UHGV virus genome: UHGV-0039337
Source: a virus
Direction: 5' to 3' (one strand)
DNA: 64,000 nt
A program made the translations under genes and the position numbers. This document shows, one piece after another, positions 25,858 to 64,000 of the stretch. The notes beneath the pieces are model-generated. The model was not told the DNA's origin, did not search any database, and saw only the letters and a list, made by a program, of their open reading frames with translations. Within the stretch, counting starts at the first letter, position 1. Each line of letters starts with the position of its first letter.

Positions 25858-26253
25858 TTATTCCTTTCTATATTCTTTACATTCTTGATTATTATATTCT
25901 AATATTTCTCTTAATATTGATCTATGACATATAATATCATTTTTTTCATAACAGATAAGGAATATAGTATATCCTTCATTATTTAAATCTATTATTTCTT
26001 TTAATCCATCAATGAAAAATGGATTGTCAAATGACTCATCTATATATTTTTGTCTATACTCTTTCCAATCAATACTACCATCTTTATACTTGGCTAATGT
26101 AAGTTCCGTGGGCGCAAGTTGAGGCGCCCACTCTATATTATATTTTTTTACGTTTATAGTATTTCTAGGTTTCCATCTAGTTATTAAAAATTTCTTAGTT
26201 GTATCATCATTTGGTAGATTTTTTAAGTTAGACAAATAAGTTGTGTATATCAT
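25858..26253 (-). CDS. DUF488-family protein
   Basis: LITRWKPRN...WAPQLAPTELTLAKYKDGSIDWKEYRQKY...IFLICYEKNDIICHRSILREIL matches the DUF488 pattern (W.P.LaPS..L...y..g.i.W.eF...Y..e ... C.E......CHR). Confidence 0.5.
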   Translation of the reverse strand: MIYTTYLSNLKNLPNDDTTKKFLITRWKPRNTINVKKYNIEWAPQLAPTELTLAKYKDGSIDWKEYRQKYIDESFDNPFFIDGLKEIIDLNNEGYTIFLICYEKNDIICHRSILREILEYNNQECKEYRKE

Positions 26254-26549
26254 TAATGACAGCCACCATTACAAACTCCATTACAATCTCTACTACATGT
26301 ATGTGCTTTTGATTCATTTAAGTTATGAGAAAACTTTTCTTTTCTTGAATCATACTTTTCTTGCATCATACTTCCAGTAGAACCATAACCATCTGCACCT
26401 CTTGTAGTTTCATCTAATTCATCTACTATAAAAGGTTGTGCTTCAAGTACTGGACATAATACTAATTGCGCAATTTTAGCATATTTCTTTAATACAAATG
26501 GTTCTGTTCCTATATTTTCTAGTTCAATACCTATTTCTCCTCTATATTT
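26253..26549 (-). CDS. dut: dUTPase exon 2 (motifs III C-terminal half, IV and V)
   Basis: Begins KYRGEIGIELENIG, then ...AQLVLCP, then TRGADGYGSTG (motif V). The TTG used by the ORF caller is in fact the last codon of the intron, ending in omega-G. Confidence 0.7.
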   Translation of the reverse strand, partial: KYRGEIGIELENIGTEPFVLKKYAKIAQLVLCPVLEAQPFIVDELDETTRGADGYGSTGSMMQEKYDSRKEKFSHNLNESKAHTCSRDCNGVCNGGCH

Positions 26550-27401
26550 CAATTTGTTATGTATAGGCTCTTTATCCTATACTCTCCTACTTTCGTAGAA
26601 GTATCGGACTATATCATTAACTCTCATATAGAGAGCAGAGCGGGGCGCTCGTGTCGGTTTTATTGTTTACCTTACTCAACCGTTAGTCTCTGAACCTTCC
26701 GTATACTTTATAGGCTTCTACGGCTTGGCTGCTGATTAGCATATCTTTCGACTTAGCCTTCCAGCAATTCACCCCGTTTAAAGACTCCAAATTTATTTTG
26801 CTTTATTATATTTTCCTAAAATGTCATGTAATTTGGAATGCTTTGATCTTGATAATATAATTAAATTAGTAGGATCATTATTTATTTTATTTTCATCTAT
26901 ATGATGTACATCATAATTTGGATTTAAATACCATTTGCCATCTATTAATACTGCACAAGATTCAGTAAGTAAATACTGTTCTGCAATTAGCCTATGCTCT
27001 CTAATTCTTCCGAATTTATTTGCAAAAGGATGATCGGGAACATAAACATATATGTAATCATTATACAGTATTTTATTTTGAGTAAAACTAGCATTCAATG
27101 GACCTTTTAATCCATATTGATGATTTCCTTCTCCTTTCATATAATTACTTTTATTGATAATATTACACTCTTCTGAACAAGTTATCATATCTGGATGTTT
27201 TAGTCTTTTAAGTCTTGAAGGTTTAACATAAAATTTTGTGCCGCATATACAACATGAAACATTTGGTTTTTTATTCCATTTATTATACATGTCAGCACAC
27301 GCATGACTACAAACATTTTTTCTATGCTTTTTTATATTATCTGTTTCGTATTCTTCATTACAATAATCGCAATGTCTTAACAATTAAGCGACATCTCCCT
27401 T
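26550..27401 (-). mobile_element. Group I intron (852 nt) in dut with an HNH homing endonuclease gene
   Basis: Splits dUTPase motif III (GTIDS | KYRGEI). Exon 1 ends in U and the intron ends in G. The GC-rich 3' core contains canonical R (GGUUCAGAGACUAAC) and S (AAUGAUAUAGUCCGA) elements forming P7, GACUA paired with UAGUC. Confidence 0.7.
26793..27383 (-). CDS. Intron-encoded HNH homing endonuclease
   Basis: Carries DVHHIDENKINNDPTNLIILSRSKHSKLH (HNH) plus N-terminal Cys-rich zinc fingers. It is in frame with dut exon 1, separated only by TAA, and the ORF caller used a TTG start. Confidence 0.6.
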   Translation of the reverse strand: MLRHCDYCNEEYETDNIKKHRKNVCSHACADMYNKWNKKPNVSCCICGTKFYVKPSRLKRLKHPDMITCSEECNIINKSNYMKGEGNHQYGLKGPLNASFTQNKILYNDYIYVYVPDHPFANKFGRIREHRLIAEQYLLTESCAVLIDGKWYLNPNYDVHHIDENKINNDPTNLIILSRSKHSKLHDILGKYNKAK

Positions 27402-27740
27402 AGAGTCTATAGTACCTGGAGCATTAGGTATTCTTATTTTAGTTTTTAAACCATTACCACTTGTAGGTCTAGCTTGCAATTCTGTGCCTAATGGTATAGA
27501 TGATGCCCAACCAGTGCATGCTAATACTGTTTCTCCTGGCATTATTATCCATGAGGAAACTCCTTTTGCAAAATCTTTATTATCCTCATATGGTTTTTTG
27601 TCTTCATTGAGTCTTTTTAATGCTATTGCAAACACATCCATTCCGCTATCTCCTGGATGTGCATATTTTAATTCTATAGCATCTTCTCTTAATCTTTTTA
27701 CTTTAATAGGCACTTGCGTATAAAAATTCAGTTTAATCAC
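27402..27740 (-). CDS. dut: dUTPase exon 1 (motifs I, II and the N-terminal half of III)
   Basis: Contains HPGDSGMDVFA (motif I), ARPTSGNGLK (motif II-like) and ends GTIDS at the 5' splice site. Confidence 0.7.
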
Positions 27741-27743
27741 TCC

Positions 27744-28283
27744 TTATTTTTTTAATTTTTTACTAACTAAATAGTCTATATATTCTATACCGAAGTTATC
27801 AAACTTACGGCATTTGTCAATTAATTCATTATAGGTCATCCACTTAGCATTCTTAGGTGCATCATATATTTCTTTAATTTTAGCACGATATACTATAGCT
27901 ATATCGTCTGGATTATTTTTTATAGTTTTAATAAATCCAAAATCTTTAACAGTTTTGAGGTCTTTTACTCCACACCTATTAGCATTATATGCTACTATAG
28001 ATTTGATAGGTTCATAATAAAAGATACTTTCTTTAATATAAGCTAAACCATTTCCATTAAATGAGTAACAACCATTACTCATTTTAAATACTAAGTAATG
28101 GTTGTTACTTTCTATTATTAGATATGGTATTATTCTATAGAATAATTTACAGTCATAAGTTACATTTCTATATAGCATATAATTATTATACTTAAGCCAT
28201 AAATTAGACTCGTCTATAGTTAATCCATTATCAAAAGATAGTTTGTATTTTGGTATAACTAATATTTCATTATTCGTCTTCAT
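27744..28283 (-). CDS. Hypothetical protein
   Basis: 179-aa ORF tightly packed against its neighbours. Confidence 0.45.
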   Translation of the reverse strand: MKTNNEILVIPKYKLSFDNGLTIDESNLWLKYNNYMLYRNVTYDCKLFYRIIPYLIIESNNHYLVFKMSNGCYSFNGNGLAYIKESIFYYEPIKSIVAYNANRCGVKDLKTVKDFGFIKTIKNNPDDIAIVYRAKIKEIYDAPKNAKWMTYNELIDKCRKFDNFGIEYIDYLVSKKLKK

Positions 28284-28557
28284 TATTTAATCCATCTTTT
28301 AAAGTTTTAGAAGCTTTAAATGTGGCTCTTTTTTTAGAAGGTATCATTATTTTTTCTTGTGGATTTCTAGGGTTTCTCCCAACTCTTTCAGCTGCTACTT
28401 TAGTTTCAAATGTACCGAAATTTACTAACGATACTTTTTCTCCTGCTTTTAATTCATCTGTTATAGTATCTAATACTGTATTAACTACTAATGTAACATC
28501 ATCCACTGTTTTGTTTGTTTTTTTAGAAACTTTACTTATTAATTCAGACTTATTCAT
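28270..28557 (-). CDS. HU/IHF-family histone-like DNA-binding protein
   Basis: MNKSELISKVSK...VNFGTFETKVAAERVGRNPRNPQEKIMIPSKKRATFKASKTLKD is a typical HU signature. Confidence 0.8.
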   Translation of the reverse strand: MNKSELISKVSKKTNKTVDDVTLVVNTVLDTITDELKAGEKVSLVNFGTFETKVAAERVGRNPRNPQEKIMIPSKKRATFKASKTLKDGLNNEDE

Positions 28558-28579
28558 AAAAAAAATCCTCCAATGTATA

Positions 28580-28960
28580 TTATTTTTTAGTTATTTTACC
28601 ATTATAAAAATCATCAATACAAGCTACATGACATTTAGCACAATTTTCAGATCTACAATTAGGTATATCTCTTTTTATGAGTTCTTTTTTTACATTATAG
28701 CATTTTAATTTTCCATTTTGTGATGGAATATTTAGATTATAATAATTATTTACACATTGAATTTTATGTATTTCATCTGTGTTTTTATTTTTAAATGACA
28801 TAAAACATATACAATCAGCAACTAACTCATAATTTGTTGTATTGTCTCCTGTTAATATTGCTCTTAAATCATCTATTGGCATACCATCTAATGTATTTTG
28901 ATTTTTTATTAATGATAAATATTCAAATAATTCTACGTTTTTCATGTTTATCACTCCCAT
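28580..28960 (-). CDS. Hypothetical Cys-containing protein
   Basis: 126-aa ORF. Confidence 0.4.
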   Translation of the reverse strand: MGVINMKNVELFEYLSLIKNQNTLDGMPIDDLRAILTGDNTTNYELVADCICFMSFKNKNTDEIHKIQCVNNYYNLNIPSQNGKLKCYNVKKELIKRDIPNCRSENCAKCHVACIDDFYNGKITKK

Positions 28961-28964
28961 TTCT

Positions 28965-29774
28965 TTACTCTTGTAACATTTTCTTTAATCTTAACAATGA
29001 TTCATCTATTTCATCTATTGTACCAAATTCGGCTTCTAGCATATCTATTAATTGTGGTGATTTATAAGTTATAACTATTAGTAGATGTTGTAAGTTACTT
29101 TTTCCCCTTGATAACTTATACATGTCTACTATATCACCTACAATATCTTCTGCTATATCTATACCTACAAGTATTAATGCATGAGTTTTTGGTATATATT
29201 TATTTTCTTTAAGTGCTTCTTCATCAAATATACTATTTAATATATTTGTCCATGTATTTTTAGGTACTTTAGAATTATAATGAGGAACTGTTGGCTGTAC
29301 TTTTCCAACACATTCAGTATTTTCAAGATCTTTATGGATGAGCACTTTATCTCCTGTTATATTTTCTGTATATGGAATTATTTTATTGCATTTAGTACAG
29401 AATAGTTCATGTCTATCTCCTTTAAGTTGTATATACTGTATATCTTTTGATATCTTATCTTTTAAGTAACCATCAAAGTTAGCATCTATTACCGTATTTA
29501 CAATTCCTAGATTTAATAGTTCCAATAGGGCTTTTTGCTCTTTTGTTCCTGTTGTATTACGTTCATTTTCTGCTATATTTGTTTTATATAATGCCCAATA
29601 TTCTTTAGGCTTTTTTACCATATTTTTTCTTGAATATACTTGTTCATTAAATTCTGTAGCATGAAATAAATGAGCTTCACGTACAATATCATTACCTACT
29701 ATTACCACTGCATCTTTATACTGTAATAAATTATTTTTCATGCTTTCTAATGCTTTACTTTTATCTACTGCCAT
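28965..29774 (-). CDS. Degenerate SIR2 (sirtuin)-fold-like protein (putative)
   Basis: Motif order and spacing follow sirtuins. VVIVGNDI sits at the GAGIS position, NTVIDANFDGY at the TQNIDGLH position, RHELFCTKC at the HG..CxxC position, and LILVGIDIAEDIV at the VxVGTS position. The second zinc CxxC pair is missing. Confidence 0.3.
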   Translation of the reverse strand: MAVDKSKALESMKNNLLQYKDAVVIVGNDIVREAHLFHATEFNEQVYSRKNMVKKPKEYWALYKTNIAENERNTTGTKEQKALLELLNLGIVNTVIDANFDGYLKDKISKDIQYIQLKGDRHELFCTKCNKIIPYTENITGDKVLIHKDLENTECVGKVQPTVPHYNSKVPKNTWTNILNSIFDEEALKENKYIPKTHALILVGIDIAEDIVGDIVDMYKLSRGKSNLQHLLIVITYKSPQLIDMLEAEFGTIDEIDESLLRLKKMLQE

Positions 29775-30236: not shown

Positions 30237-30309
30237 CTCTGGATTTTTACATATATATTCGTAGTGTTTGCATACTACTTTATGTTTACAATCTGAACAA
30301 AATATACTA

Positions 30310-33971: not shown

Positions 33972-35753
33972 CTAAAATCTAGTTATTAAATTAGGATCTA
34001 TTTCTTTTATAAATCTAGATATCTTAACATACTTAGATTGTCCATTTATTATTTGATTTTGTGGATATAACATAAATAAATAATCTTTAGCTCTTGTTGC
34101 AGCGACAAACATTAAACGTCTTTCTTCTTCTATTTCTTTAGGAGCAGTAGATCTAAAAGATGGTAAGCATCCTTCAGCTAAATCTATTATCATTACTGCA
34201 GTAAATTCTAATCCTTTAGATTTATGAATAGTAAGTAAGTTAACTGCGTCATCTTCATCTTCTAGTTCTTCTTTGTACAATGATGCTTGTATTACTAAAT
34301 CTTCTATTGTATCATACTCTTTAGCTACACTAACTAGTTCTTGTAGATTTTCTTCTCTATCTGTTAAGTCTTCTCCTTTGTATTGTTGTTTGAACCATGC
34401 ATAGTATCCTGTATTTAATAATATATATTGTATTAGTTCATATGGTTTCATTTCTGTAACAGCTTTTTCTAATTTATTTATTACATCAACATATTCATCT
34501 ATAGAATTCTTAGCTTTACCTTTTAACGGTAAATTCTTATGAATTATAGCATCACGTACATTTAAATTATTGTCTCTGCAAAAGTTTTCTATTTTTTGTA
34601 ATGATACATCGCCTATACTACGTTTAGGACATGATACACTACGTTTAAATGCTTGAAAATCATAAGGATTGACAAGTAGTCTAAGATAACTAAGTACGTC
34701 TTGTATTTCTGCTCTATTAAAGAAAGGAACACCACCAAATATTTTATATTTGATTTTGTTTTCCATTAATACTTTTTCTACATTACGTGATAAATAATTA
34801 TTTCTATATAATATTGCCATATCTTTATAATCTACGCCTTTACTGTGCATAGTTTTAATATATGCTACTGCCTTTTTAGCTTGTTCTTGTTGTGATTTAC
34901 ATGTAGTTACTACAGCATTCATGCCTTTTATATTACGACCACATGATACTTCTTTATCTATTTGATTACTATTATGAGATATTATAGATTTGCCTATATT
35001 AACTATTGTTTCTGTACTTCTATAATTGATTCCTAAGTTATACATTTTAAGATTAGGATAAATAGCTTTTAGATTTATCATATTGTCTACATCTGAGAAT
35101 CTAAAGCCATAGATAGCTTGATAATCATCACCAACAAAGAATATGTTATTATTTGGTCCACTTAATAAATAAGTTAGTCTAGTATCAGCTATAGACATAT
35201 CTTGGCTTTCGTCGCTACTTACATATTTCCATCTATTGTTTATAGTTTCTTTAATGTCTTCGTGTAGTTCTAATAATTTTATAGTATTAAATATTAAATC
35301 ATCAAAGTCCATAACCATTTGTCTTTTAAGTTCATCTTGATATTTTTCATACATATCAGCTACTTGTTTTTCTGTATCATTTGTAGCATTATTCATTGCT
35401 TGTTGAGGAGTTTGGTAATGTGCTTTAAATGCAGCTATAGATGTTTTTATAAGTCCAGCATCTATATTATAAGCTTTGCTTAATTGTTTTATTATCTTAT
35501 CACTATCATTTTCATCCACTATAGTAAATGTTTTAGTATATTCTAATCTATCTGCATATTGTCTTAGTATTCTATTACATATGCTATGATAAGTACCAAC
35601 AGTAATTCTTTTTCCTTTTTCTCCTACTTTATCTACTATACGTTCTTTCATTTCATTAGCTGCTTTATTTGTAAAAGTAGTTAATAATATATTTGCTGGA
35701 TCTATACCATTTAATATCATATATTGAGCTCTTGCTACTATGACTCTAGTTTT
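33972..35753 (-). CDS. UvrD/PcrA/Rep-like superfamily 1 helicase, exon 2
   Basis: Begins KTRVIVARAQYMILNGIDPANILLTTFTNKAANEM (motifs I-end and Ia), with UvrD-type motifs downstream (FVGDDYQAIYGFR, LGINYRS). The in-frame sequence upstream of the called ATG supplies the KT of the P-loop. Confidence 0.7.
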   Translation of the reverse strand, partial: KTRVIVARAQYMILNGIDPANILLTTFTNKAANEMKERIVDKVGEKGKRITVGTYHSICNRILRQYADRLEYTKTFTIVDENDSDKIIKQLSKAYNIDAGLIKTSIAAFKAHYQTPQQAMNNATNDTEKQVADMYEKYQDELKRQMVMDFDDLIFNTIKLLELHEDIKETINNRWKYVSSDESQDMSIADTRLTYLLSGPNNNIFFVGDDYQAIYGFRFSDVDNMINLKAIYPNLKMYNLGINYRSTETIVNIGKSIISHNSNQIDKEVSCGRNIKGMNAVVTTCKSQQEQAKKAVAYIKTMHSKGVDYKDMAILYRNNYLSRNVEKVLMENKIKYKIFGGVPFFNRAEIQDVLSYLRLLVNPYDFQAFKRSVSCPKRSIGDVSLQKIENFCRDNNLNVRDAIIHKNLPLKGKAKNSIDEYVDVINKLEKAVTEMKPYELIQYILLNTGYYAWFKQQYKGEDLTDREENLQELVSVAKEYDTIEDLVIQASLYKEELEDEDDAVNLLTIHKSKGLEFTAVMIIDLAEGCLPSFRSTAPKEIEEERRLMFVAATRAKDYLFMLYPQNQIINGQSKYVKISRFIKEIDPNLITRF

Positions 35754-36936
35754 CGAATTTGTTATCGTGAGGCTTTTTATCCTTCACTTCTACGGCTATT
35801 AACCGTAGTCCAGCATATTTTTTCGTGTGATTACTAACTGTGAACACGGTGCGGCCTCGTGGGTTCATTATACTCCTTACTTATAAGGTAAGGGATCAGA
35901 ACCTATGCGTTGCGCCTGGTCGATATTACTATCGTCGCTCACATTACTGCTCGCTAGCTTTTCAGCACCTTCGGTCTCGAGTAGGCTGTCTTTTGACTTT
36001 ACGCCATCCTCGCTTAATTCCGCACTAATACTCTCAGGATTTCTCACAGTCTTATCCTGAGACGGCAATATTCTAAATACTTATTATATTTTCTATCTAA
36101 ATAAACGGTAGCATCTTTATATATATAATCAAATATTTTTTTTAACGAATCAATTTTAAAAATATTTAACGAAGGAACTCTATTTTTATTATTATATATA
36201 TGAATATCATCTTCTTTTAATGTAGAAGTATTTATGATGGCGTTTTTTATATCTTCTAGTACTTGGAAATTATAAGAAACAATTGACCATTTGCAATTTC
36301 CTTTTGTTTTCTTTTTGCCAGATAAACTAAAAGATCCATCTCCATCAAAAACGCCTCTTATAAAATGATGCATAAATTCTTCTGGGATGTTTGGAATTTT
36401 CCATCCATAAGTTTTATTGTGCATTACACCGAGTTCTCTTAATCTATTTGCCATATATGGATCTTGAATAGTAAGTCTATAATATGCATATCCAGATACT
36501 ATCCTAGTGCTGATTTTATGTTCAGCTTCCATATCTGTTTTAAATTTTTCTATGTGTTCCTTATCTTTTATGCATACTTCTAAACTATTCTTTTTTGATA
36601 AATGACCATCAGCAAATATAAAGCCTAACCAATATGCACTTTTTTCATTCCATTCATCAAAGAATTTATTATTAAAATATTTTTTATTATGTTGTGCATG
36701 TTTGGTATTTATTCCTTTTTCGTTAAATTTTTTAGCTAAATAATTTCTATCTCTTTCTAATAATTCAGCTACTTTTGTTAAACTTAATCCATTATTATAT
36801 AATTTGATTGCTATGTTTAATTCTTCTTCAGATATTGATTTTCTAGGCATAGTTAAATTTCTCCTTTATAAAAATATATTTAACTATTTATTACCTAGAC
36901 ATGCCGTTTATTTATTTAAGCATTTAAAAATTATCT
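35754..36936 (-). mobile_element. Group I-type intron (1183 nt) in the UvrD-like helicase gene, with a LAGLIDADG homing endonuclease
   Basis: Splits the Walker A motif (TATAGAG | KTRV). Exon 1 ends in U and the intron ends in G. The GC-rich 3' core (35754-36043) is homologous to the core of the AAA-gene intron. It shares a 3' terminal motif AGGAUAAAAAGCCU..AUAACAAA..G with the dut and AAA introns, and has an S-like AAUAUGCUGGAC. Confidence 0.6.
36044..36850 (-). CDS. Intron-encoded double-motif LAGLIDADG homing endonuclease
   Basis: SAYWLGFIFADGHL and HHFIRGVFDGDGSF. It is a paralog of the ORF at 61078-61941. Confidence 0.7.
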   Translation of the reverse strand: MPRKSISEEELNIAIKLYNNGLSLTKVAELLERDRNYLAKKFNEKGINTKHAQHNKKYFNNKFFDEWNEKSAYWLGFIFADGHLSKKNSLEVCIKDKEHIEKFKTDMEAEHKISTRIVSGYAYYRLTIQDPYMANRLRELGVMHNKTYGWKIPNIPEEFMHHFIRGVFDGDGSFSLSGKKKTKGNCKWSIVSYNFQVLEDIKNAIINTSTLKEDDIHIYNNKNRVPSLNIFKIDSLKKIFDYIYKDATVYLDRKYNKYLEYCRLRIRL

Positions 36937-37038
36937 ACCTGCACCAGCAGTAGCAGTAGTTAAACTAGGTCCTTTTATATGCTTAACAGCTGCTTTTTGT
37001 CCGTCGTTTAATCCTTGCAGCAATTCTTCTGCATTCAT
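36937..37038 (-). CDS. UvrD-like helicase exon 1 (34 aa), not in the ORF track
   Basis: A GGAGGT RBS lies 8 nt upstream of the ATG at 37038. The exon encodes MNAEELLQGLNDGQKAAVKHIKGPSLTTATAGAG, the UvrD N-terminus up to the P-loop, and ends ...GGT before the intron. Confidence 0.6.
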
Positions 37039-38128: not shown

Positions 38129-38129
38129 A

Positions 38130-39045: not shown

Positions 39046-39618
39046 TTAATTATTTTTTGCTAATAATTTACTAGCAGATTGTACTGATTTAGTATTTATT
39101 TTTCTGTTAGATTTTTGTTTAGGTTCTTCTGATGCATATAATGCTCTACCTTTAGCCCATTCTTCTAAATCTTTTATCTTTTCTTGAGAAGATATAGTTA
39201 TAGGTATTACATCATTTTTAGCTGCTATTAAATCTGCTTTAGTTACTTCAAACTTCTTACCTTCTTTGGTACATCTTAAGAATGCTTTCTTCATGCTATT
39301 TTTAACTATTTGTTCTATTTCTGCTCCAGTATATCCTTGAGTTTCTACTGCTATATCTTTTATTATTTTTTCAGATACATCTAAACCTTTTTTGTTTATA
39401 TGGACTTTGAATATTTCTTTTCTTTCTTCTAAGTTCGGAGTATTGAAAAACCATATATTATCGACTCTACCGGCTCTAGTTAATTCTGGTGGTAAATCTT
39501 TTACATTATTACTAGTCATAATACAGAATATACCATTAGTATTATCATTTAACATTTCTAATATAGTTCCAAAGACTCTTGATAAAGTCCCTGAATCTGA
39601 AGCGTTTGAACTTGCATA
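39046..39618 (-). CDS. AAA+ ATPase exon 2 (sensor 1, arginine finger, sensor 2 region)
   Basis: The in-frame upstream extension YASSNASDSGTLSRVFGTILEMLNDNTNGIFCIMTSNNVKDLPPELTRAGRVD matches the AAA+ second region of homology. The 3' splice site was placed by analogy with the conserved AUAACAAA..G| terminus of the dut and helicase introns. Confidence 0.55.
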   Translation of the reverse strand, partial: YASSNASDSGTLSRVFGTILEMLNDNTNGIFCIMTSNNVKDLPPELTRAGRVDNIWFFNTPNLEERKEIFKVHINKKGLDVSEKIIKDIAVETQGYTGAEIEQIVKNSMKKAFLRCTKEGKKFEVTKADLIAAKNDVIPITISSQEKIKDLEEWAKGRALYASEEPKQKSNRKINTKSVQSASKLLAKNN

Positions 39619-40775
39619 CGTTTTGTTATCAATAGGCTTTTTATCCTATTTTCTGGGGCATTATACCCATTATGAACCTGTTAATTCAGGTTCCAGTCCA
39701 GCATATCTTTTCATGGATTAAATACCACACCATGGAACGGCCTCGTGGACACATTATATTCTACATAGTAGTTTCAGTGTCTATGCGTTGCGGCTGGTTA
39801 AGCTTTTAAACTTATCCTTCACCTCTGATTACGGACATTACCCGCTTTCCAGATTTTTTCCGTTCTAATAATTCTAAGACTTCTGTGGTTTCGTCTTAGA
39901 ACGGCTAATAAATCGTCCTTTTTCATCTCTTGAGATATATGGATGCTCAAGAGCATGACAGTCTTGACATAATGTGATTCCGTTATTAATATCATTAAAT
40001 TCTTTTGAATTTAATATCTTATCTATATTCATATCATATTTATTGCATATATCATATAATTGATTTACATGGTGAGCATGTAAGTTCTTTTTTGTTTTAC
40101 ATTTAGAACATTCATATTTGTCTCTTTTAAGGATCTTTGCTCTCCATTCATCATATTTTTCATGCGTGCGTAAATAATGCGAAATTTCTTTGTAAGTTTC
40201 TTTCTTATTGGTTCTATATTCATCATAGCATTCTTTACTACAAAAGTGCTTTTCGGCTCTATTATATGCATATTTATTTTTTTCAAATTCTTTATTACAA
40301 TTATCACATATTACAATTTGAGTTTCTTTTTTTGCATATTCAATTCTGCATTTTTTATTACAGAAATGCAGATTATGTTTATTTTTAACAGCTAGCACTT
40401 CTTTTCCACAATTATTACATTTAACAAATTCTTTATTTTTACGTTGTTCTGCTATTCTGCATTCAATAGAACAATATTTTGGAATTTGTCCACGCTTACT
40501 TTGTTTATTATAATATGATTCTTTAAGCTTAAAATTTTTACCACAATGTTGACAAATAAGCGAAATTTCTTTACTATATTTTACTTTTCCTTCTTGTTTT
40601 GCTAATTTAGCATGCTCTTTACAGCAATGAAATACTTTATTTTTGCTTTCATTGTATCTTGTAATGGTAATTTTAAACTCTTTATTACAATAATTGCATT
40701 TGACTATCATTATATATCACGTCCTTAATATATTTATTTATTAAGGTATTACCGTGAATGAACGATTTATTTATT
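39619..40775 (-). mobile_element. Group I-type intron (about 1157 nt) in the AAA+ ATPase gene, with an HNH homing endonuclease
   Basis: Separates the Walker B exon (...LLIDEVEKNLGG, ending GGU) from the sensor-1 exon. The GC-rich core at 39619-39873 is homologous to the helicase intron core. The 5' junction is uncertain by +/-1 nt because of a 1-nt conflict between my count and the ORF track. Confidence 0.5.
39874..40710 (-). CDS. Intron-encoded HNH endonuclease with multiple CxxC zinc fingers
   Basis: C-terminal HAHHVNQLYD...NGITLCQDCHALEH (HNH), with six or more CxxC pairs N-terminal. Confidence 0.65.
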   Translation of the reverse strand: MIVKCNYCNKEFKITITRYNESKNKVFHCCKEHAKLAKQEGKVKYSKEISLICQHCGKNFKLKESYYNKQSKRGQIPKYCSIECRIAEQRKNKEFVKCNNCGKEVLAVKNKHNLHFCNKKCRIEYAKKETQIVICDNCNKEFEKNKYAYNRAEKHFCSKECYDEYRTNKKETYKEISHYLRTHEKYDEWRAKILKRDKYECSKCKTKKNLHAHHVNQLYDICNKYDMNIDKILNSKEFNDINNGITLCQDCHALEHPYISRDEKGRFISRSKTKPQKS

Positions 40776-41811
40776 TACCTCCCAAGTTCTTCTCTACCTC
40801 ATCTATTAATAATACACAAGGAGCACAAGATTCAACTAAAGTTTTAACTTGAGCAATCTTTCTTTCTGATTCACCAACAAATTTAGTAAGGACAGAACTC
40901 ATATTTAATTTTAAAAATGGTACGTTTAATTCATTAGCTATAACTTCTGCCATATAACTTTTACTAGATCCTGGAACTCCTAATGCTAAATATCCTTTAG
41001 GCATATCAATACCTATTTCTCTAGCTTTAGGAGACATACATATTTTAGTTTCTTCGAACCATTCTTTAAATCTATGATTACCTCCTACATCATTCATTGT
41101 TGCTTTTGCCTCTTTGTAGTCTAACAAACCACTTGATTTTATCATAGATATTTTCTTTTCTTTTAACATTTCATAACTTAATTCATCATATTTAACATAT
41201 GATTCATCAAGAATTTCTATTATTTCTCTTCTACTATAACCTATAAAGTATTTATATACTTCTTCTGTATCTATTTCTTGATTTCTTACTTCAGCATAAT
41301 CATTTATTAATTCTTTTATATCTTCATCTGTTAATTCGTCATAATTTAATTCTTTAAACAAATGGTCTAATGTTGCATTTGATTGATGAGTAGGACTAAT
41401 AACTATAATAGGAGTATATATAGATTGTTTAAATTCTAATATTTCTCTGAATACTCTGGACCATGCATAATTTCCATATAATAAATCCATATCTTTTAAT
41501 ATGATAGCTGATAGTTCCATACTTTCTTTATCGCTTTGTATCTTATTATATAAAGATAATATAGCGGCACCACTAGTACCATTTTTAACTCCACTACTTT
41601 TATCTAGCATTTCTTTTACTATATTATTTTTACTATCAGTATTTAATTTATATATACCGGAAGATGGTTCAAAATCATATATAACATCTATACCTTCTTC
41701 TTTTAGAGTATTTATAACAGAAGCTACAACTTCTTTTTCTTGTTCAGATTTAATCCATATAGCTTCTTTTTTTATTTCTAATAATAAAGCTAATTCTTTA
41801 TTAAATTTCAC
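40776..41811 (-). CDS. AAA+ ATPase exon 1 (Walker A and Walker B)
   Basis: Walker A is LALGVPGSSKS and Walker B is CVLLIDEVEK. The ORF ends with a stop three codons into the intron. Confidence 0.6.
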
Positions 41812-49702: not shown

Positions 49703-51595
49703 TTAATTACATTTACTGTATCCACAATTTACACAACTAATACATCCTTCAGTTTTTAATAGTGTTTTTTCTTCACATTCAGGGCATGTCATGTAATAAT
49801 CATTTGTTTCTTTAGCTGTTTCTGTTTTTTTAGTTTCTAATGGTTTAGACTTTTCTTTTTGTTGTATTGTTTTAATTTCTATTTCAGTATCATCATCAAA
49901 ATCTATAAATTCTTCCATGAATTGATTATGAGCATTTACTAATGCATAAGCTACTGCTGATGCACATGATGAACCTTTAGAAGTTGTTTTGTCTTTATAT
50001 TTAGAAATACTATATGATGGACATACTAAAGCTGATTCTAATTGATCTGCTATTTCTTCTACTGGTGCTCCTTTTCTTGCACATAGACTAGTAAGTCTAG
50101 ATACTGCATTTAATAAAGATAAACAACCACCTTTGCTTCCTTTATCTAAGAACACTTCACGTAATTCTCCAGTTTCAGGACAGAAATAGAAAGTACAATG
50201 CAAACTTCCACATCCAGTTTTAAGTTTTCTCTTAATACCGATTACGGAATCATCAACTAATATAGTATCTCCAAATTTAAGCATAGATTTAGCTTTTTCT
50301 ATTGGAGTTAGATTCGACTCTTTTTCTTCTTTTTCATTACTTACTGTAAGAATACCTGCTCTTTCACAGTTATTTCTATATATAGTTAATCCTTTAACTC
50401 CTTTTTCGGCACCATATAAATAAATTTCTTTTATTTGTTGTGGCGTAACATCTTCTGATAAATTGACTGTAGATGAAATCGATGCGTCTATATATTTTTG
50501 AATAGTAGCTTGTACATCTACTCTATTAAATGGATCTAATTGGTGTGTTGATATAAAGTATTCAGGTAAATCATTAGTATTACCTGTAACTTTTCTATAG
50601 TCTTCAACTATTTTAGCTTCTACTGTATAGTAAACATCTTCATCATGTAAGCTTTCAGTTTTTCTAGTATAACTATAAGCAAAATTAGGTTCTACTCCAT
50701 ATGAAGTATTAAGTAATCCAGCTACAGTTCCAGTAGGTGCTATTGTAGTTAATTGGCTATTAAATAGTCCATTTTGTAGCGCAGCTTTTAGTGTATTTGT
50801 TTCGTAATAATTTAGATTTCCAACTAAATTTTGTATTATATCTGATTTAAATGTTTTGTCTGCATCATAATTTTTAAATGGTGTGTTGCCTTCTATTTTT
50901 GCATAATCAGCACTAGCTATTATACTATTATATAATAAGGCAGTACCTATTGTTTCTATCACTAATAATGATTCTGACGAACCATAAGTTATTCCTAATT
51001 TTATTAAAGTATCTGCCAATCCCATTATTCCAAGTCCTATTTGTCTTAAATCGCCTACGGTTTTACGTTGTTCTTCTAATGGATGTAAAGGCATACCTTC
51101 TATTAATACATCATTTAATGCAAATATAGCTTTATGAATTACTTTTTTAAATTCATCGTAATCAAATCTAGCGTTTGGTGTAAATGGATCAATTATAAAC
51201 TCACTTAAATTAATAGCACCAAGCAAACATGAACCTCCTGCAGGAAGAGGTTCTTCAGCACATGGATTCACACCTACATAATTAAAATCATCATAATATT
51301 GCATTAAGTTATAATTTTGTATTTTATCCCAATAAAGAATTCCTGGTTCTGCCATTCTCCAATTGTTTAATGCTAGTTTATCCATGATTTTATTAGCGTC
51401 GATTAATTTTACTATAGTATTTCCATCTTCTAATTTAAATGTACAAGGATAACTCTCTTTATTTTTAACAGCTTCAATAAAATTACTATTTATCATAACT
51501 GAAATATTTGCTTTAGTTATGGCATTTAAATCTGTTTTTATATCTATAAATTCTTCAATGTCTGGGTGGCTTACATCCATGGATATCATGAGTGC
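49703..51595 (-). CDS. Ribonucleotide reductase large subunit (class I/II fold, probably NrdJ-like), exon 2
   Basis: Begins ALMISMDVSHPDIEEFI. It carries the catalytic NPCAEEPLPAGGSCLLGAINLS and a C-terminal CPECEEK...CISCVNCGYSKC zinc ribbon. No small-subunit gene is present in the window. Confidence 0.75.
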   Translation of the reverse strand, partial: ALMISMDVSHPDIEEFIDIKTDLNAITKANISVMINSNFIEAVKNKESYPCTFKLEDGNTIVKLIDANKIMDKLALNNWRMAEPGILYWDKIQNYNLMQYYDDFNYVGVNPCAEEPLPAGGSCLLGAINLSEFIIDPFTPNARFDYDEFKKVIHKAIFALNDVLIEGMPLHPLEEQRKTVGDLRQIGLGIMGLADTLIKLGITYGSSESLLVIETIGTALLYNSIIASADYAKIEGNTPFKNYDADKTFKSDIIQNLVGNLNYYETNTLKAALQNGLFNSQLTTIAPTGTVAGLLNTSYGVEPNFAYSYTRKTESLHDEDVYYTVEAKIVEDYRKVTGNTNDLPEYFISTHQLDPFNRVDVQATIQKYIDASISSTVNLSEDVTPQQIKEIYLYGAEKGVKGLTIYRNNCERAGILTVSNEKEEKESNLTPIEKAKSMLKFGDTILVDDSVIGIKRKLKTGCGSLHCTFYFCPETGELREVFLDKGSKGGCLSLLNAVSRLTSLCARKGAPVEEIADQLESALVCPSYSISKYKDKTTSKGSSCASAVAYALVNAHNQFMEEFIDFDDDTEIEIKTIQQKEKSKPLETKKTETAKETNDYYMTCPECEEKTLLKTEGCISCVNCGYSKCN

Positions 51596-52537
51596 CGATT
51601 GTACCGTTTCTTTCGAAATACTTTAACATCGTTTTATACGATCGGTCTAGACTATATCTTCAACTCATATTCTTTTACCGAATATGAGTTGCTTGGTACT
51701 TCCGGTCAGGATTTTCACCTAATTACCCGTACTCTACTCGGTTATTCTCTTAGATATTTCTTCTAAGATATCCTTTCGATAGTCGTTTGACTTTATTTTA
51801 TATTATATAGCTTCATAAGTTATTATATAGTTTTTTAATTTTCCTCTACTTGGCATAGGTTTTTTACCCTCTGCATATAATCCTAAAACCGTTATATTTC
51901 CCGCTGAATATCCAAAGTATCTTGCTAATTCTGATAGTGATACGAATTCTTTAATAAAGTTTCCTTCTCTATCATAAAGGTATACATGCTTATTGCAAGT
52001 ACAACAATCATCACCGTATGCTTGCTGTGTGTTTTCGGATATTGTGCCCCATTTTAGGTTTGTATAATGATTATTTAATTTATTGTTATCTAAATGTAAT
52101 ACTATAGGGTAATCATTTGGATTTTCTAAATAAGTCATAGCGACTAATCTATGCACCCTAAAATGTCTTCTTATTCCATCTTTACATACTAACAATAAAT
52201 CTTCATAACCATCTTTCATTATTCTTGTCGATAAAAACCTTTTTAATATTTTTGAATATATTTGCCCATCTTCGGTTATACTATAATAATCTTGTTTTAT
52301 ATTGAAGCAATCCAAATCTTTTATAAAAATCATCTCCTAATAATTTTTATAAGAAATGGCATAATATAAAATCTTAGCACAGGATTAGCATACCTATATG
52401 GCTTTAGCCTCCCCTGTTAGCACACTCATTAATAACCATTTCCTGTTATTACTAATATACGCTGAGTGTACACCCTAGTTTTTAGGTTCACCAAGTTTTT
52501 CATTATATATCACTATATAAAGGCGGCCGATATTTTA
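51596..52537 (-). mobile_element. Group I intron (942 nt) in the ribonucleotide reductase gene, with an HNH_3-type homing endonuclease
   Basis: Splits ...IGQKGRRG | ALMISMDVSHPDI (conserved RRGA.M...HPDI). Exon 1 ends in U and the intron ends in G. The core has R (GUCAAACGACUAUCG) and S (AAGAUAUAGUCUAGACC) elements. Confidence 0.7.
51803..52333 (-). CDS. Intron-encoded HNH_3-family homing endonuclease
   Basis: VLHLDNNKLNNHYTNLKWGTISEN is an HNH_3 motif. Confidence 0.6.
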   Translation of the reverse strand: MIFIKDLDCFNIKQDYYSITEDGQIYSKILKRFLSTRIMKDGYEDLLLVCKDGIRRHFRVHRLVAMTYLENPNDYPIVLHLDNNKLNNHYTNLKWGTISENTQQAYGDDCCTCNKHVYLYDREGNFIKEFVSLSELARYFGYSAGNITVLGLYAEGKKPMPSRGKLKNYIITYEAI

Positions 52538-52984
52538 ACCGCGTCTACCTTTTTGACCTATAAGTCCTGTTGTCATAGAATATAAATCCATAAAAGATAC
52601 TGCTCCTGATGTGGTTTTGGCTGCATTATGTACTGTAGCTTTATTTGGTCTAAGTTTTGATATATCAATTCCCACACCTCCACCATAGGAGAAAGTTCTA
52701 GCTAATTTTTTTGCCGTATCAAATATACTTTCTAAATTATCTTCAGGTGGTTCTAAAACATAACAATTAGAATAAGTTACTTTTGTTCCATTTTTTTGTA
52801 ATCCTCTATTAGCAAGTATTCTGCCTCCATATATAAATTTTTTATCAAGTATTAATTGCTGTACTTCTTTATCCCCGTTAGTTACTCTTTCTAAAAATTC
52901 ATCAAATGTTTCATTATTATATCTGTATTTTCTTTCATATTCACTTACAGATAGTTTTGATGTTAGCCATTCTTTTATATCCAA
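52538..52984 (-). CDS. Ribonucleotide reductase large subunit exon 1
   Basis: NCYVLEPPEDNLESIF...SYGGGVGIDISKLRP...SGAVSFMDLY...IGQKGRRG is the RNR N-terminal core. Confidence 0.7.
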
Positions 52985-57562: not shown

Positions 57563-57910
57563 TTAATTAATTTTATTTATATAATCATTTAATGATTTTA
57601 TAAGCTCGTCTATTTCTTTTGTAAGAGATTCAGGTGGCGCTGAATTAAAACTTTTATAATAACTATCTACAATATTTTTTTTACGTTGTTCTAATATATA
57701 TACATTAGCTCTAAAAATTGGTTTTGCTGCATTCATATTTACGCTTTTATCTTCTGTCTCTATATATTGTATTAATTCTTCAAGGAAAAGAGCTACAACA
57801 TTACGTACAGCATCTTTTCCTTCATACATCGAAGAAGAAGCAGCTACGCCTATAAAATTAGTTATAGCTGCTCTTAATGATTCTTGTTCATTTGTATATG
57901 GTTTTGCCAC
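57563..57910 (-). CDS. Hypothetical protein
   Basis: 115-aa ORF. Confidence 0.4.
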   Translation of the reverse strand: MAKPYTNEQESLRAAITNFIGVAASSSMYEGKDAVRNVVALFLEELIQYIETEDKSVNMNAAKPIFRANVYILEQRKKNIVDSYYKSFNSAPPESLTKEIDELIKSLNDYINKIN

Positions 57911-60342: not shown

Positions 60343-60356
60343 GCTATCTTCCTCCC

Positions 60357-60755
60357 CTATAATATCGTATAATCTTCTTCAGACATTATATATTGTCTTT
60401 TTTCTGTATTCATTACTTTGCTATTCATACACATAGAAACTATTTTATTAGCTTCTTCTGCGTCTTCAATTGTTATTTTAATTAGTGTTCTATGTTCTGG
60501 ATTCATAGTTGAATCCCATAAACCTTCTGCTGATAATTCACCTAATCCTTTTAAATAAGTTATATTTAATTTTTTATTAGGATATTGTTGTTTAATAGAA
60601 TTTAATTCAGCATCATCTATAGCATATAACGTAGTATTTTTATCTACTATAATCTTATATAATGGTGGGCATGATAAATATAAATAACCTTCTTCTATTA
60701 TAGGTCTAAAATATCTATAAAATAATGTTATATACAAAGTAGCTATATGATAACC
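60357..60755 (-). CDS. Type II topoisomerase subunit B (GyrB/ParE-like), exon 3 (C-terminal)
   Basis: Begins GYHIATLYITLFYRYF and carries GYLYLSCPPLYKI (the GyrB PPLYK motif). Confidence 0.7.
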   Translation of the reverse strand, partial: GYHIATLYITLFYRYFRPIIEEGYLYLSCPPLYKIIVDKNTTLYAIDDAELNSIKQQYPNKKLNITYLKGLGELSAEGLWDSTMNPEHRTLIKITIEDAEEANKIVSMCMNSKVMNTEKRQYIMSEEDYTIL

Positions 60756-62013
60756 CGATTACACCCTCGGTTTCCCGATATTTATCAGGGGTCTAGACTA
60801 TACCTTCGCCATTTCAGGCGCACTGAACGTAGTCGTTGGACTCCTCCTGTTCGGAGTCGGCTGCTGATTTTCCATTAATTCACCCTTAGCACGTATTTAA
60901 TAATACGCTTTTGTCTCAGCTTAGGTAATCCTCAATACTTTTTTCTGCTTTCGCAACATTCATATAAGTTTGTTTCATCTTATATTGTAGTGATTAAGGC
61001 TTTAGGAATTCCCAGCAAGCGGTCAGTGTAATAATCCTATAGGTTATTATTCCCTATAAGACGACTATATTTATAAATTAATTATATTTTAAATAGAGAT
61101 TTAAATAACGTTCAAATTTGCGTTCCATATATATAGTACAATCTAAATATAACCAACTCATTATTTGATATACTTGATTATCACCACATAATCTTAAACT
61201 TTGAACGTTTCCGTCTCCGTTTTTATGTCTTTTTTGTAATTTTACATTCTCTTTATTTAAAATTGTTTTAAGCGTTTCTAAAAATTCTGTAGTACCTAAT
61301 ATACTAATATCATAAGTATGATATTTTTTATCTCCTGATATTGACAGAGATCCATCTCCATCAAAATATCCTCTAATAAAATGTCTTTGTAATTCTTTTG
61401 GTACTATATCCTCTGAAGGAAATAAACAATGATTGGTTTTATCAAGGCTAAAACCTTTATTAACTAAATCTTGATACATCTTTTTGCTAGTTATAACCAT
61501 TTTTGACTCTCTTGTAATACAATCAAAACTTTTATTGTAATGTTCATAATCTCTTATTGGATACGTAGAGTCTATATCTTTTTTAAATTTTTCTATCATA
61601 TTACGATCTTTTGTGGCTAACGTTAATCCTATTTCATTCCCTCTATTTGTTATATATCCATCAGCCATTAAAAAACCCAACCAATAAGCTTTATGTTCTG
61701 TATCAATAACTTCAAAGTAATTATCATTTACTTTATTTCTTCTTAAATCATCAGGACTTTTCTTTTGATATAGTCCTGCTTTAATTAAAACTGGATAAAT
61801 AGTTTGAGGTTTTCTATCTTTTAACGATTCTTTATTCTCACAAATCCATTTTACGCTATGTCCCTCTTTATATTTATTGCATATCCATTTTTTATCTTCT
61901 TCAGAAAATGATTTTCTTATTCTTTTTGTCAATATATTCACCCCAATATTTAGTTTCTTTATCTAAATATTACGGTGAACGTAGACGCTTATAATAATTA
62001 TTTATAAATCTTA
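60756..62013 (-). mobile_element. Group I intron (1258 nt) in gyrB-like, with a LAGLIDADG homing endonuclease
   Basis: Splits DADVD | GYHIATL (GyrB Toprim DADVDG.HI.tLLLTFF). Exon ends in U and the intron ends in G. The core has R (GUCCAACGACUAC) and S (AGGUAUAGUCUAGACC) elements. Confidence 0.7.
61078..61941 (-). CDS. Intron-encoded double-motif LAGLIDADG homing endonuclease
   Basis: KAYWLGFLMADGYI and RHFIRGYFDGDGSL. Confidence 0.7.
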   Translation of the reverse strand: MNILTKRIRKSFSEEDKKWICNKYKEGHSVKWICENKESLKDRKPQTIYPVLIKAGLYQKKSPDDLRRNKVNDNYFEVIDTEHKAYWLGFLMADGYITNRGNEIGLTLATKDRNMIEKFKKDIDSTYPIRDYEHYNKSFDCITRESKMVITSKKMYQDLVNKGFSLDKTNHCLFPSEDIVPKELQRHFIRGYFDGDGSLSISGDKKYHTYDISILGTTEFLETLKTILNKENVKLQKRHKNGDGNVQSLRLCGDNQVYQIMSWLYLDCTIYMERKFERYLNLYLKYN

Positions 62014-63202
62014 ATCAACATCGGCATCGCTCATTATTATTATCTTATGATATCGTAAGTTATCTATATTAAAATCTTCACCTATACCACACTCTAAACT
62101 ATATAATATATCTTTTAATTTATCAGATGATAATACTTTATCTAAAGTCATTTCTTCTACATTTGGTATTTTCCCGAATACAGGTAATATTGCTTGAGTA
62201 TTCTTGTCACATGCGGTAGTTGCTGTAGAAGCTGCACTATCACCTTCAACTAAAAATATTTCGCAAGCTTCAGGATCTTTACTAGCACATTTTACTAATT
62301 TTTCAACTTTTTTATTAGCGAAATTTTTATTCTTTCTTGCAGCTTCTTTTGCTTTATAGGCGGCTTCTCTGATCTTGTTTGATTCAATAACTTTATTAAG
62401 TATATTATCTTTATCATTCGGTAGTTTATCAAATTGATCTTCACAAAACTCCTTTACTTCACTATACAATATGCTTGCTATTACAGGCATATTTAAATAA
62501 TCTTTTCCTTGTCCTATATAGTTAGGATCTGGTACCTTGACACTAACTACTGCTATTATACCTTCACGTGTGTCTTCTGCTGTTAATTGTGTTTTAGATT
62601 TAGGATATTCATTTTCAAAGCAATCTTTAACAGCTGTAGCTATACCACGTTTAAATCCTGTTATATTAGAAGATTTACCATCGGTATTTATAACATTATT
62701 AGTAAACGCTATTATATTATCACTATAAGCCTGAGTCCAAGCAAAAGCTACAGATATTTCACACGATTTATCATTATCCATTTCAACTGATTTAGTTAAG
62801 AACCAAGGATCATGAATACTTTCTTTGTTAGCTGTAAGTTCTTCAACATATGCTTTAACACCCTCTGGATAATTATAGATTTCATGTATGTTATAGTCCC
62901 CATATTCTATATCTACTTTAATAGTAAGTTCAGGATTAAGATAGCATATTTGTTTCATTCTGCTATTAATAGCTGGTATATTAAAATCATCTTTATCAGC
63001 CCATATTTCAGGATCTGGTTCACATTGTATAAGAGTCATAGTAAAGTCTTCACGTGATATTTCTTCTACTTCGTGTAATTTATGAGTCACTAATCCTTGT
63101 TCAAATTCCATATCATATACTTTACCACCAGTATATATTTCAACATGGAACCATTTAGATAAGAAGTTTATACATGATGCTCCTACGCCATTTACAATAG
63201 TT
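62014..63202 (-). CDS. GyrB/ParE-like subunit B, exon 2 (transducer and Toprim)
   Basis: The in-frame extension upstream of the called Met gives TIVNGVGASCINFLSKWFHVEIYTGGKVYD (GyrB HGVGvSvVNALS region). Further on are FLVEGDSAAST and IMSDADVD (Toprim). Confidence 0.65.
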
Positions 63203-63868
63203 CACATAGGTTCGCTATTCCTATGCCGCACTATTACGTGCAGCCTCTAGTTTTCACTAGGGATCGGACTATATCATCACCCTTTAATAAGGGGTTCTCC
63301 ATTTCCATTTAATAGGTAATTAAGAGCCTTATTACGGCTCACCTAACCGCTTGGCTGTACTCTACTCACTTCTGTTACTATCAGAATCGCTTTCGATAGT
63401 CTCTGAACTTTCATTTATTCCATTTAAATAACCAAATTCTTGTTCTTTTTCTCTTCTAAAATCAATACACATCTGTTTAGCTTGTTCATAACCATATTTT
63501 TTACACGATCTTGATATTCTACATTTTTTATGTTCATTATCTTTTATTTCTGCAATCCAAGAATCTCTACTTTTATCATATCTTACACCTTTTATTCCGC
63601 TTGTGTTACATTCTCTTAATGATGTATTTTTTAAATTTTCGTGTCTTGTTGTTATTCTTAAATTGTTTTTACGATTATCCAGACCGTTATGATTTAAATG
63701 ATCTACAACAATGTCGTAACCTTCTACGTCTAATATTAATCTGTGCAAATATATTGGTTATATAAAATAAATGTTTAGCTGCTGATTGCCATATGCTTAT
63801 GCACTTAGGTTTCCAGCAATTAAAAGAATTTTTCGATACACATTACTGCGTAAAGGGACTAAATAGTT
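63203..63868 (-). mobile_element. Group I intron (about 666 nt) in the gyrB-like ATPase-domain region, with an HNH-AP2 homing endonuclease
   Basis: The core has R (GUUCAGAGACUAUCG) and S (GAUAUAGUCCGAUCC) elements. It separates ...FEEGVKSAGL from (T)IVNGVGAS. The exact junction is ambiguous because AACUAUU occurs at both boundaries. Confidence 0.55.
63362..63748 (-). CDS. Intron-encoded HNH endonuclease with an AP2-like DNA-binding domain
   Basis: VDHLNHNGLDNRKNNLRITTRHEN is the HNH motif, and GIKGVRYDKSRDSWIAEI is AP2-like. Confidence 0.6.
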   Translation of the reverse strand: MHRLILDVEGYDIVVDHLNHNGLDNRKNNLRITTRHENLKNTSLRECNTSGIKGVRYDKSRDSWIAEIKDNEHKKCRISRSCKKYGYEQAKQMCIDFRREKEQEFGYLNGINESSETIESDSDSNRSE

Positions 63869-64000
63869 AATCCAGCTGATTTAACACCTTCTTCAAATTT
63901 AGTACCAGCTTTTAATCTAGACATACATAATTCAGCTATGGTACATCCTGGTATTTCATCTGATTCTTCTGTAGGTAACGCACCTGCGCTATCTGTTACT
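63869..64000 (-). CDS. GyrB/ParE-like subunit B, exon 1 (partial, continues beyond the window)
   Basis: The reading frame gives ...EIPGCTIAELCMSRLKAGTKFEEGVKSAGL, matching the GyrB GHKL ATPase region (S.aEvimt.LHAGGKFd...YKvSGGLHGVG). Confidence 0.5.

Follow-up and report, generated by a model that had tools for sequence, protein, structure and literature searches.

Why are five genes of DNA metabolism in pieces in the virus genome UHGV-0039337 (UHGV), and are these pieces joined again in the transcript? The DNA analyzed here, called the window, is a stretch of 64,000 nt of this genome. Within the region 26253-64000, six inserts split dut, a UvrD-like helicase gene, an AAA+ ATPase gene, a class II (B12-type) ribonucleotide reductase (RNR) gene, and gyrB, the last of which is split twice (inserts gyrB-A and gyrB-B). 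From the exon junctions, the ribozyme cores and the endonuclease genes described below, these inserts are very probably six mobile group I introns in five genes of an uncultured phage of ~270 kb.

Six Inserts and Their Boundaries

All genes between 26 and 64 kb lie on the minus strand, so that coordinates descend in the 5' to 3' direction. Translation of the open reading frames (ORFs) gave the five genes in pieces (three for gyrB), with an endonuclease-like ORF between the pieces. The boundaries of the inserts were placed by reading the sequence, and in all six cases the upstream exon ends in U and the insert ends in G. The inserts measure 675-1258 nt each and 6,068 nt in sum, which is ~16% of the flagged region. 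An earlier note on this sequence had reported six interruptions at these genes; with a boundary derived for every one of them, the observation is confirmed. That note had called the five genes essential, and while the number of genes stands, their being essential is an assumption. It had also described the cores as ORF-free islands of about 45% GC. The islands are real, but their GC content is not uniform, with a range of 0.35-0.46 against a background of ~0.27. The same arrangement was found again in independent assemblies, in contigs of 269,929 and 271,414 bp, and is therefore not an assembly artefact. The length of these contigs indicates that the host of the introns is a jumbo phage; megablast of the window against cultured phages returned no close relative.

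The Exons Join in Frame

When the exons were joined at the derived boundaries, each of the five genes gave a single open frame, and the spliced translations were aligned with known homologues (the caret marks the junction). The dUTPase aligned without a gap to a solved homologue through GTIDS^KYRGE, the helicase to PcrA through AGAG^KTRV with the junction within Walker A, RNR to Thermotoga NrdJ through RRG^ALM..HPDIEEF, and GyrB to E. coli GyrB at both sites, GL^NGVG and DADVD^GYHI. The AAA junction lies in a loop between Walker B and sensor 1, where VAT and Cdc48 are continuous within 2 residues and the alignment with VAT has a 2-residue gap. Uninterrupted helicases of IMG/VR are 56-57% identical to the window helicase, and one of them (L035, 57%) reads TATAGAGKTRVI in translation, which corresponds to AGAG^KTRV.

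The exon frame runs into a stop codon 0-6 codons inside each insert. An intein has to be in frame and translated through, and inteins were therefore excluded.

Group I Cores and Guide Sequences

The cores were compared with the Rfam family Intron_gpI (RF00028), which has a gathering threshold of 50 bits. Searched alone, the dut core scored 75.4 bits (E 1e-19), above the threshold. The gyrB-A core matched in two halves on either side of its ORF (40.0 and 36.4 bits), gyrB-B matched with a large P5 insertion (35.2 bits, E 1.4e-7), and RNR matched with its 3' half (25.9 bits, E 2.5e-4). The single scores of the last three introns are low because ORFs or P5 insertions split the core. Rfam runs on the whole window, at the gathering threshold and at E<=10 over 39 kb, gave no Intron_gpI match, and the single-core searches show that this null result is a false negative of the filter. 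Running Infernal on the whole sequence, as had been proposed for a check, would thus mislead, since it misses a core that scores 75 bits alone.

The canonical P7 element GACUA...UAGUC, which the earlier note had read in four cores, is indeed present in dut, RNR, gyrB-A, and gyrB-B. A guide with a G opposite the splice-site U was readable in all six introns. The guide of dut (GGAGUCU, after the ORF) forms 7 of 7 pairs with AGACUCU at the end of the exon, and AAAU of the 3' exon is paired with AUUU. P1 is GGAU/GUCC plus 3 bp in gyrB-A (7 bp in total, Rfam alignment), GCGGU/GCCGC in RNR (5 bp), and UGAU/GUCG in gyrB-B (4 bp). The Rfam alignment of dut has an insertion after P7, in the same place as the P7.1 hairpin of the variant family described below. 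The last 47 nt of gyrB-B are 94% identical to a Staphylococcus phage.

Endonuclease ORFs and the Proposed Mechanism

Each of the six ORFs matched a homing-endonuclease family, four of them HNH and two LAGLIDADG, in agreement with the families named earlier, and five of the six matches exceeded the Pfam cut-off. HNH_3 was found in the dut ORF, HNH_3 with NUMOD1 in the RNR ORF, LAGLIDADG_3 in the helicase and gyrB-B ORFs, and a partial HNH_3 with AP2 in the gyrB-A ORF of 128 aa. The HNH_2 match of the AAA ORF (19.8 bits) was just below its cut-off of 21. The ORF is located between the 5' splice site and the internal guide sequence (IGS), i.e., in the P1 loop, in dut, helicase, AAA, and gyrB-B, and inside the core, in the P6 region, in RNR and gyrB-A. 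The claim that all but the reductase ORF lie near the 5' end therefore holds for four introns and fails for gyrB-A, which is internal like RNR. Identity between the two LAGLIDADG proteins is 31%, and the HNH ORFs show hardly any relationship to each other. With cores and endonucleases so diverged, the six introns are independent acquisitions and not recent copies of one another.

In the proposed mechanism, each intron would fold in the pre-mRNA into a P3-P9 ribozyme core, and the U ending the upstream exon would pair with a G of the IGS in P1. Exogenous guanosine bound in P7 would attack after the splice-site U. The terminal G of the intron would then take the place of the guanosine, and the exons would be ligated with the reading frame restored. 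The intron ORFs may cut or nick intron-less alleles in co-infecting relatives, and repair would copy the intron plus flanking exon sequence, which is homing. Both splicing and endonuclease cleavage are predicted here from sequence, and homing fits the presence/absence polymorphism described below. The proposal of group I introns carrying homing-endonuclease genes is supported by the Rfam matches, covariation, the U...G boundaries, and the Pfam families.

Relatives of the Helicase and AAA Introns and the Shared 3' Module

Aligned with each other, the cores of helicase and AAA have 71% identity, and both contain the variant motif A(A/G)AUAUGCUGGAC; they are homologous to each other, as had been suggested. 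A signature pattern made from these two cores retrieved 25 IMG/VR loci, ~21 of which are true relatives, and blastn with the AAA intron found two gyrA introns of Bacillus phage AR9/PBS1 (E 2e-9). Covariation was evaluated in a MAFFT alignment of 19 non-redundant members, including the AR9 gyrA introns, with helices placed by position. P9 and the outer 3' stem, which MAFFT misaligned, were excluded from the count.

The dut, helicase, and AAA introns have in common the 3' segment AGGAUAAA(A/G)AGCCU...AUAACAAA..G. In this module, a stem capped by a fixed AUAAA(A/G)AG loop precedes RAUAACA..G. Conservation extends over the 19 variant-class introns from AR9 and IMG/VR, and the module is also present in the thyX intron of a crAss-like phage, which has a canonical P7, and in an extra RNR intron of the sister genome L028. 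From the near-identical segment, the earlier note had inferred that introns recently spread or recombined with one another. The presence of the segment in the three introns was verified, but this interpretation is not supported, as the module is lineage-wide, the cores are only 71% identical, and the endonucleases have diverged.

As an alternative to common descent, recent recombination between introns of this genome, or a swap of modules, would account for the almost exact sharing of the module between dut with its canonical core and the helicase and AAA introns with their variant core. The extra RNR intron of L028 has a third core type and carries the module too, so the module occurs on different cores. 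However, AR9, 15 IMG/VR contigs, and a crAss-like phage have the conserved module as well, its covarying stems and fixed loop are typical of a functional peripheral element, and the sequences around it are diverged. We therefore consider recent swapping unlikely. The 3' module is a lineage-wide peripheral element, for which swapping is possible but not needed.

A Putative Variant P7 in the Helicase and AAA Introns

In the 19 aligned sequences, 97.9% of the cells were paired, compared to 32-38% with slid partners and 77.8% in shuffles. Sixteen pairs changed on both sides, in P3 (4/6), P4, P6, the P7.1 hairpin (4/4), and P8 (5/5). The helix order P3-P4-P5-P6-P7-P7.1-P3'-P8-P7' is that of the group I pseudoknot, in which P7 crosses P3. 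The hairpin between P7 and P3', all four pairs of which covary, is the extra helix after P7 (P7.1/P7.2) that characterizes subgroup IA. The variant P7 was read as A(C)GCAUA/UAUGCU. It is fully complementary, lies in the right place, and keeps the G-C pair and the bulge of the canonical C(A)GACUA/UAGUCG, while the two pairs next to this putative guanosine-binding G-C pair are swapped relative to the canonical type. GCAUA/UAUGC fits every member of the variant family and the canonical register. Two other readings of P7 were dropped: CCAG/CUGG needs a bulge of 7-8 nt, and GUCCA/UGGAC is not conserved in the helicase copy.

The guide of the variant introns is a conserved GCC inside UGCCGU, directly 5' of P2 and downstream of the ORF, and it pairs with exons ending in GGU. 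Seven members of the family have such exon ends, which supports the guide, and in L023 the exon GUCGGU pairs at 6 of 6 positions with a deviant guide, GCCGAC. A P2 formed across the ORF as ACGGCA/UGCCGU is possible in the window copies, but the AR9 introns have no 5' partner for it. UGCCGU is better read as the guide region, although an alternative pairing may mask the guide.

The helicase and AAA inserts might instead belong to a different class of structured RNA or ribozyme (e.g., one related to the Rfam orphan motif RAGATH-22) that is removed by another mechanism. Their missing Intron_gpI match, their non-canonical P7 sequence, and a weak RAGATH-22 match of the AAA core over P7.1-P9 (39626-39758, minus strand; 21.6 bits, E 0.037) speak for such a class. 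The RAGATH-22 score is far under the threshold of 120 bits, however, and with P4-P6 enclosed by P3, and P3' and P8 spanned by P7, the helices have the order and pseudoknot of group I introns, and their covariation is strong. Moreover, both inserts have U...G boundaries, and they have in common with canonical-P7 introns (dut and the crAss-like thyX) the CAACG before P7, the J8/7 AAAAGAUA, the P7.1 loop (UGAA...AUAUAAU), the CACGA joiner, and the 3' module; the CAACG context is also found in gyrB-B and RNR. A separate RNA class is thus very unlikely. Because of these shared elements, we read the variant class as a sister lineage within the IA-type phage introns and not as a new kind of RNA. The window accordingly contains at least two intron lineages, as had been proposed: a canonical-P7 lineage with dut, RNR, gyrB-A, and gyrB-B, and a sister lineage of the same architecture with helicase and AAA. 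As for RAGATH-22, that motif might be a fragment of variant-class introns, or the match might be due to chance. A literature search on RAGATH-22 returned nothing, and with the score so far under the threshold this lead was dropped.

A further observation concerns the sites of the variant-P7 introns, which interrupt Walker A, GxxGxG^K[TS] (GGT^...^AAR in DNA), at the precise border of its Gly and Lys codons in three unrelated helicase superfamilies. These are UvrD (window helicase, 36937/35753, and L012/L039), SNF2/ResIII (L007 and L015, with L008 from the 3' exon only), and DnaB_C (L001 and L023, with L022 by flanking exon sequence and L009 from the 3' exon only). The window copy and six loci yielded the complete G^K junction, and the 3' exon starts with Lys in 12 of 16 members of the family. 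A literature search gave no description of the variant-P7 family or of the Walker A siting, though it did not cover the AR9 genome paper, where the class may be described. We tentatively suggest, as a possibility on the doubtful side, that the variant type is an undescribed group I subgroup, invisible to RF00028, whose GCC guide and endonucleases let it colonize the Walker A Gly^Lys site (GGU^AAR) in UvrD, SNF2, and DnaB. If true, one ribozyme lineage would be specialized on the most widespread motif of nucleotide-binding proteins.

Intron Turnover in Related Genomes

Comparison with intron-less relatives, which the earlier note had recommended, revealed empty sites for gyrB-A and, in L035, for the helicase. 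Intron gyrB-A is absent in L031 and L032, which are otherwise near-identical contigs with identical RecA, and gyrB reads GGT GGT T^TA AAT GGA (GGLNGLG) there. Around this empty site, gyrB shares only 40-80% identity with the intron-plus allele (window and L028) over its first ~1,040 nt, and 93-100% thereafter; this drop in identity fits a co-conversion or recombination tract at a homing site. Two further RNR introns were found in sister genomes, one after VNPCA^EEPLP in L028 (16290-17010), which is the intron of the third core type mentioned above, and one after KFIYGG^RILANRG in L030 (13925-14795), which has a canonical P7. The number of intron sites in this module is thus at least eight for the phage lineage.

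At the same site, the helicase gene of L039 (53% identical) is interrupted by a homologous intron that carries a LAGLIDADG ORF. In L065 (3384-3826), from another IMG/VR phage, an AAA gene of 65% identity has an intron at the site of the window AAA intron, in which a deletion has left only the final ~70 nt of the HNH ORF; the homing cycle has here reached the stage at which the endonuclease is lost. No intron-less AAA allele was found among five relatives, all of which appear to be interrupted at the same site. Taken together, there are signs of ongoing intron turnover among near-identical genomes.

Weighing the Intron Interpretation

Split genes, in which free-standing endonucleases have inserted and the separately translated halves associate in trans, are known from nrdA of phage Aeh1 and the topoisomerase genes of T4. 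Although free-standing endonucleases are common in phages and gene callers list the halves as separate ORFs, such an arrangement is scarcely conceivable here, since the helicase is split within Walker A (AGAG^KT) with a first half of just 34 aa, a start codon is lacking at the junction in the downstream halves, each insert has an ORF-free structured core of 200-300 nt with a group I match or covariation, every insert keeps the U...G boundary rule, and intron-less homologues are exactly colinear.

Several points do weigh against the interpretation of all six inserts as mobile group I introns. RNR, gyrB-A, and gyrB-B each score under the gathering threshold of Intron_gpI, and the helicase and AAA cores gave no match to this family even at E<=10 in searches of ~300 nt. 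In the window copies of the latter two, P1 has just 3 bp (GGU/GCC). The variant P7 is invariant within its family and has no internal covariation, and its only covariation is that against the canonical GACUA/UAGUC. The AAA junction is in a variable loop, where protein alignment fixes its position only to ~2 residues, and the short gyrB-A ORF may be defunct or decayed.

Features and Other Observations in the Window

The features of the five genes are given in Table 1.

Table 1. Exons, introns and core elements of the five interrupted genes in the window.
Feature	Position	Strand	Remarks
dut exon 1	27402..27740	-	Ends ...NAPGTIDS, last base U; dUTPase (PDB) alignment gap-free across S113^K114
dut intron, 852 nt	26550..27401	-	HNH_3 ORF 26793-27383; terminal G at 26550
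dut intron IGS GGAGUCU; P7 GACUA / UAGUC	26782-26788; 26684-26688 / 26607-26611	-	Rfam Intron_gpI 75.4 bits
dut exon 2	26253..26549	-	Starts KYRGEIG
UvrD-like helicase exon 1	36937..37038	-	34 aa, ends ...TATAGAG within Walker A; PcrA alignment gap-free
Helicase intron, 1183 nt, variant-P7 class	35754..36936	-	LAGLIDADG ORF 36044-36850; terminal G at 35754
Helicase intron IGS GCC; P7 GCAUA / UAUGC	36064-36066; 35904-35908 / 35813-35817	-	Family covariation
Helicase exon 2	33972..35753	-	Starts KTRVIVARAQ
AAA+ ATPase exon 1	40777..41811	-	Ends ...LLIDEVEKNLGG; Pfam AAA profile positions 2-68
AAA intron, 1158 nt, variant-P7 class	39619..40776	-	HNH ORF 39874-40710; terminal G at 39619
AAA intron IGS GCC; P7 GCAUA / UAUGC	39903-39905; 39782-39786 / 39701-39705	-	blastn to AR9/PBS1 gyrA introns and covariation
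AAA+ ATPase exon 2	39046..39618	-	Starts YASSNASDSG; Pfam AAA 74-129 plus lid domain
Class II RNR exon 1	52538..52984	-	Ends ...GQKGRRG; T. maritima NrdJ alignment gap-free at G149^A150
RNR intron, 942 nt	51596..52537	-	HNH_3+NUMOD1 ORF 51803-52333, internal; IGS GCCGC 52523-52527
RNR intron P7 3' strand, within GAUAUAGUCU	51649-51658	-	Rfam match of 3' half
RNR exon 2	49703..51595	-	Starts ALMISMDVSHPDI
gyrB exon 1	63870..64000	-	Cut by window end; ends ...KSAG + first Leu-codon base; full exon in L028
gyrB intron A, 675 nt	63195..63869	-	Short HNH_3 (partial)+AP2 ORF 63362-63748, internal; IGS GUCC 63856-63859
gyrB exon 2	62014..63194	-	(...L)NGVGAS ... IIMSDADVD
gyrB intron B, 1258 nt	60756..62013	-	LAGLIDADG ORF 61078-61941; IGS GUCG 61062-61065; large P5 extension
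gyrB exon 3	60357..60755	-	Starts GYHIATLYITLFYRY

Two other loci of the window were noted. A DnaE-like Pol III alpha gene at 22421-25577 (minus strand) consists of two ORFs with a one-base frame change near 24313-24345, immediately before the PDIDID motif and without an insert. The same break is present in the independent assembly L033, and an intact second DnaE-like gene is located at 5198-8509 (plus strand). Candidate explanations of the break are programmed frameshifting, a pseudogene, and an error common to both assemblies. In addition, an ORF of 2,613 aa at 9574-17415 (minus strand) has peptidase C39-like, phage tail lysozyme/SLT, and two M23 peptidase domains, with weaker GDSL-lipase and SH3 matches below the cut-off. 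It looks like a giant tail-associated lysin or a tape-measure-type protein.

Implications for Intron Annotation

These results add a well-resolved, intron-dense, uncultured jumbo phage whose natural intron-plus and intron-minus alleles are useful for the study of homing, co-conversion, and phage-phage competition. Phage group I introns escape standard Rfam scanning, here six of six at window scale and two at any scale; the intron counts of phage genomes and metagenomes are therefore probably underestimates. Furthermore, annotation of intron-bearing phage genomes lists the split ORFs as genes of their own. The variant-P7 family can serve as a seed for a better covariance model.

Comparison With Known Phage Introns

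Subgroup IA introns with endonuclease ORFs are known in phages from td, nrdB, and nrdD of T4, the DNA polymerase gene of SPO1, and orf142 and nrdE of Twort. They interrupt genes of nucleotide and DNA metabolism at codons of conserved motifs, and have U...G boundaries, a conserved AGAUAUAGUC J8/7-P7 element, an extra helix after P7, and HNH or other homing-endonuclease ORFs in loops. The introns described here resemble them in the choice of metabolism-gene sites, the boundaries, the AGAUAUAGUC element, the extra helix, and the loop ORFs. They differ in that six lie within 38 kb, four have the ORF in the P1 loop, and two have a changed P7.

The closest counterparts of the helicase and AAA introns are those of AR9/PBS1 gyrA, a coding sequence annotated in AR9 (KU878088, 35264-38405) as a join of three pieces, i.e., with two introns. 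They have in common GCAACGCAUAG, a P7.1 hairpin with a UGAAAC...AAUAUAAU loop, CCA(C/A)GAG, AAAAGAUAUGCU, the GGAUAAAAAGCC 3' stem-loop, the UGCCGU guide region, and a 5' exon ending in GGU. Unlike the helicase and AAA introns, those of AR9 lie in gyrA, have no ORF, and are ~430 nt long; they end in ...UAAUAACUAACAG/UAUUAG as opposed to GAUAACAAA..CG. The dut core, for its part, is 72% identical over 190 nt to the thyX intron of the crAss-like phage cr111_1 (MT774387, 45.4-47.3 kb), and the two introns share the canonical P7, P7.1 loop, ACACGA joiner, and 3' module. The thyX intron differs in its gene and in belonging to another phage order, and the record lists two separate thyX coding sequences with no intron annotated.

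It had been claimed that even the classic intron-rich phages carry fewer introns per genome segment, which is not supported by published data or by AR9, where gyrA alone has two. In the Bastillevirinae, multiple group I introns per genome, most of them with HNH, were reported in DNA polymerase, terminase, RNR, and thymidylate synthase genes, and covariance-model matches to phage introns are often one-sided or absent (PMC11878797). Table 3 of that study lists 45 introns in 37 Bastillevirinae genes; the single Siophivirus genome analyzed accounts for 6 introns, located in 2 genes (PMC11878797). The Bastillevirinae introns cluster in few genes, whereas those of the present phage are spread over five, including dut, UvrD, AAA+, and gyrB. 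The intron density is thus high but not unmatched, and the six introns are of a known kind: mobile group I introns in the DNA-metabolism genes of a phage, a dense but ordinary intron load.

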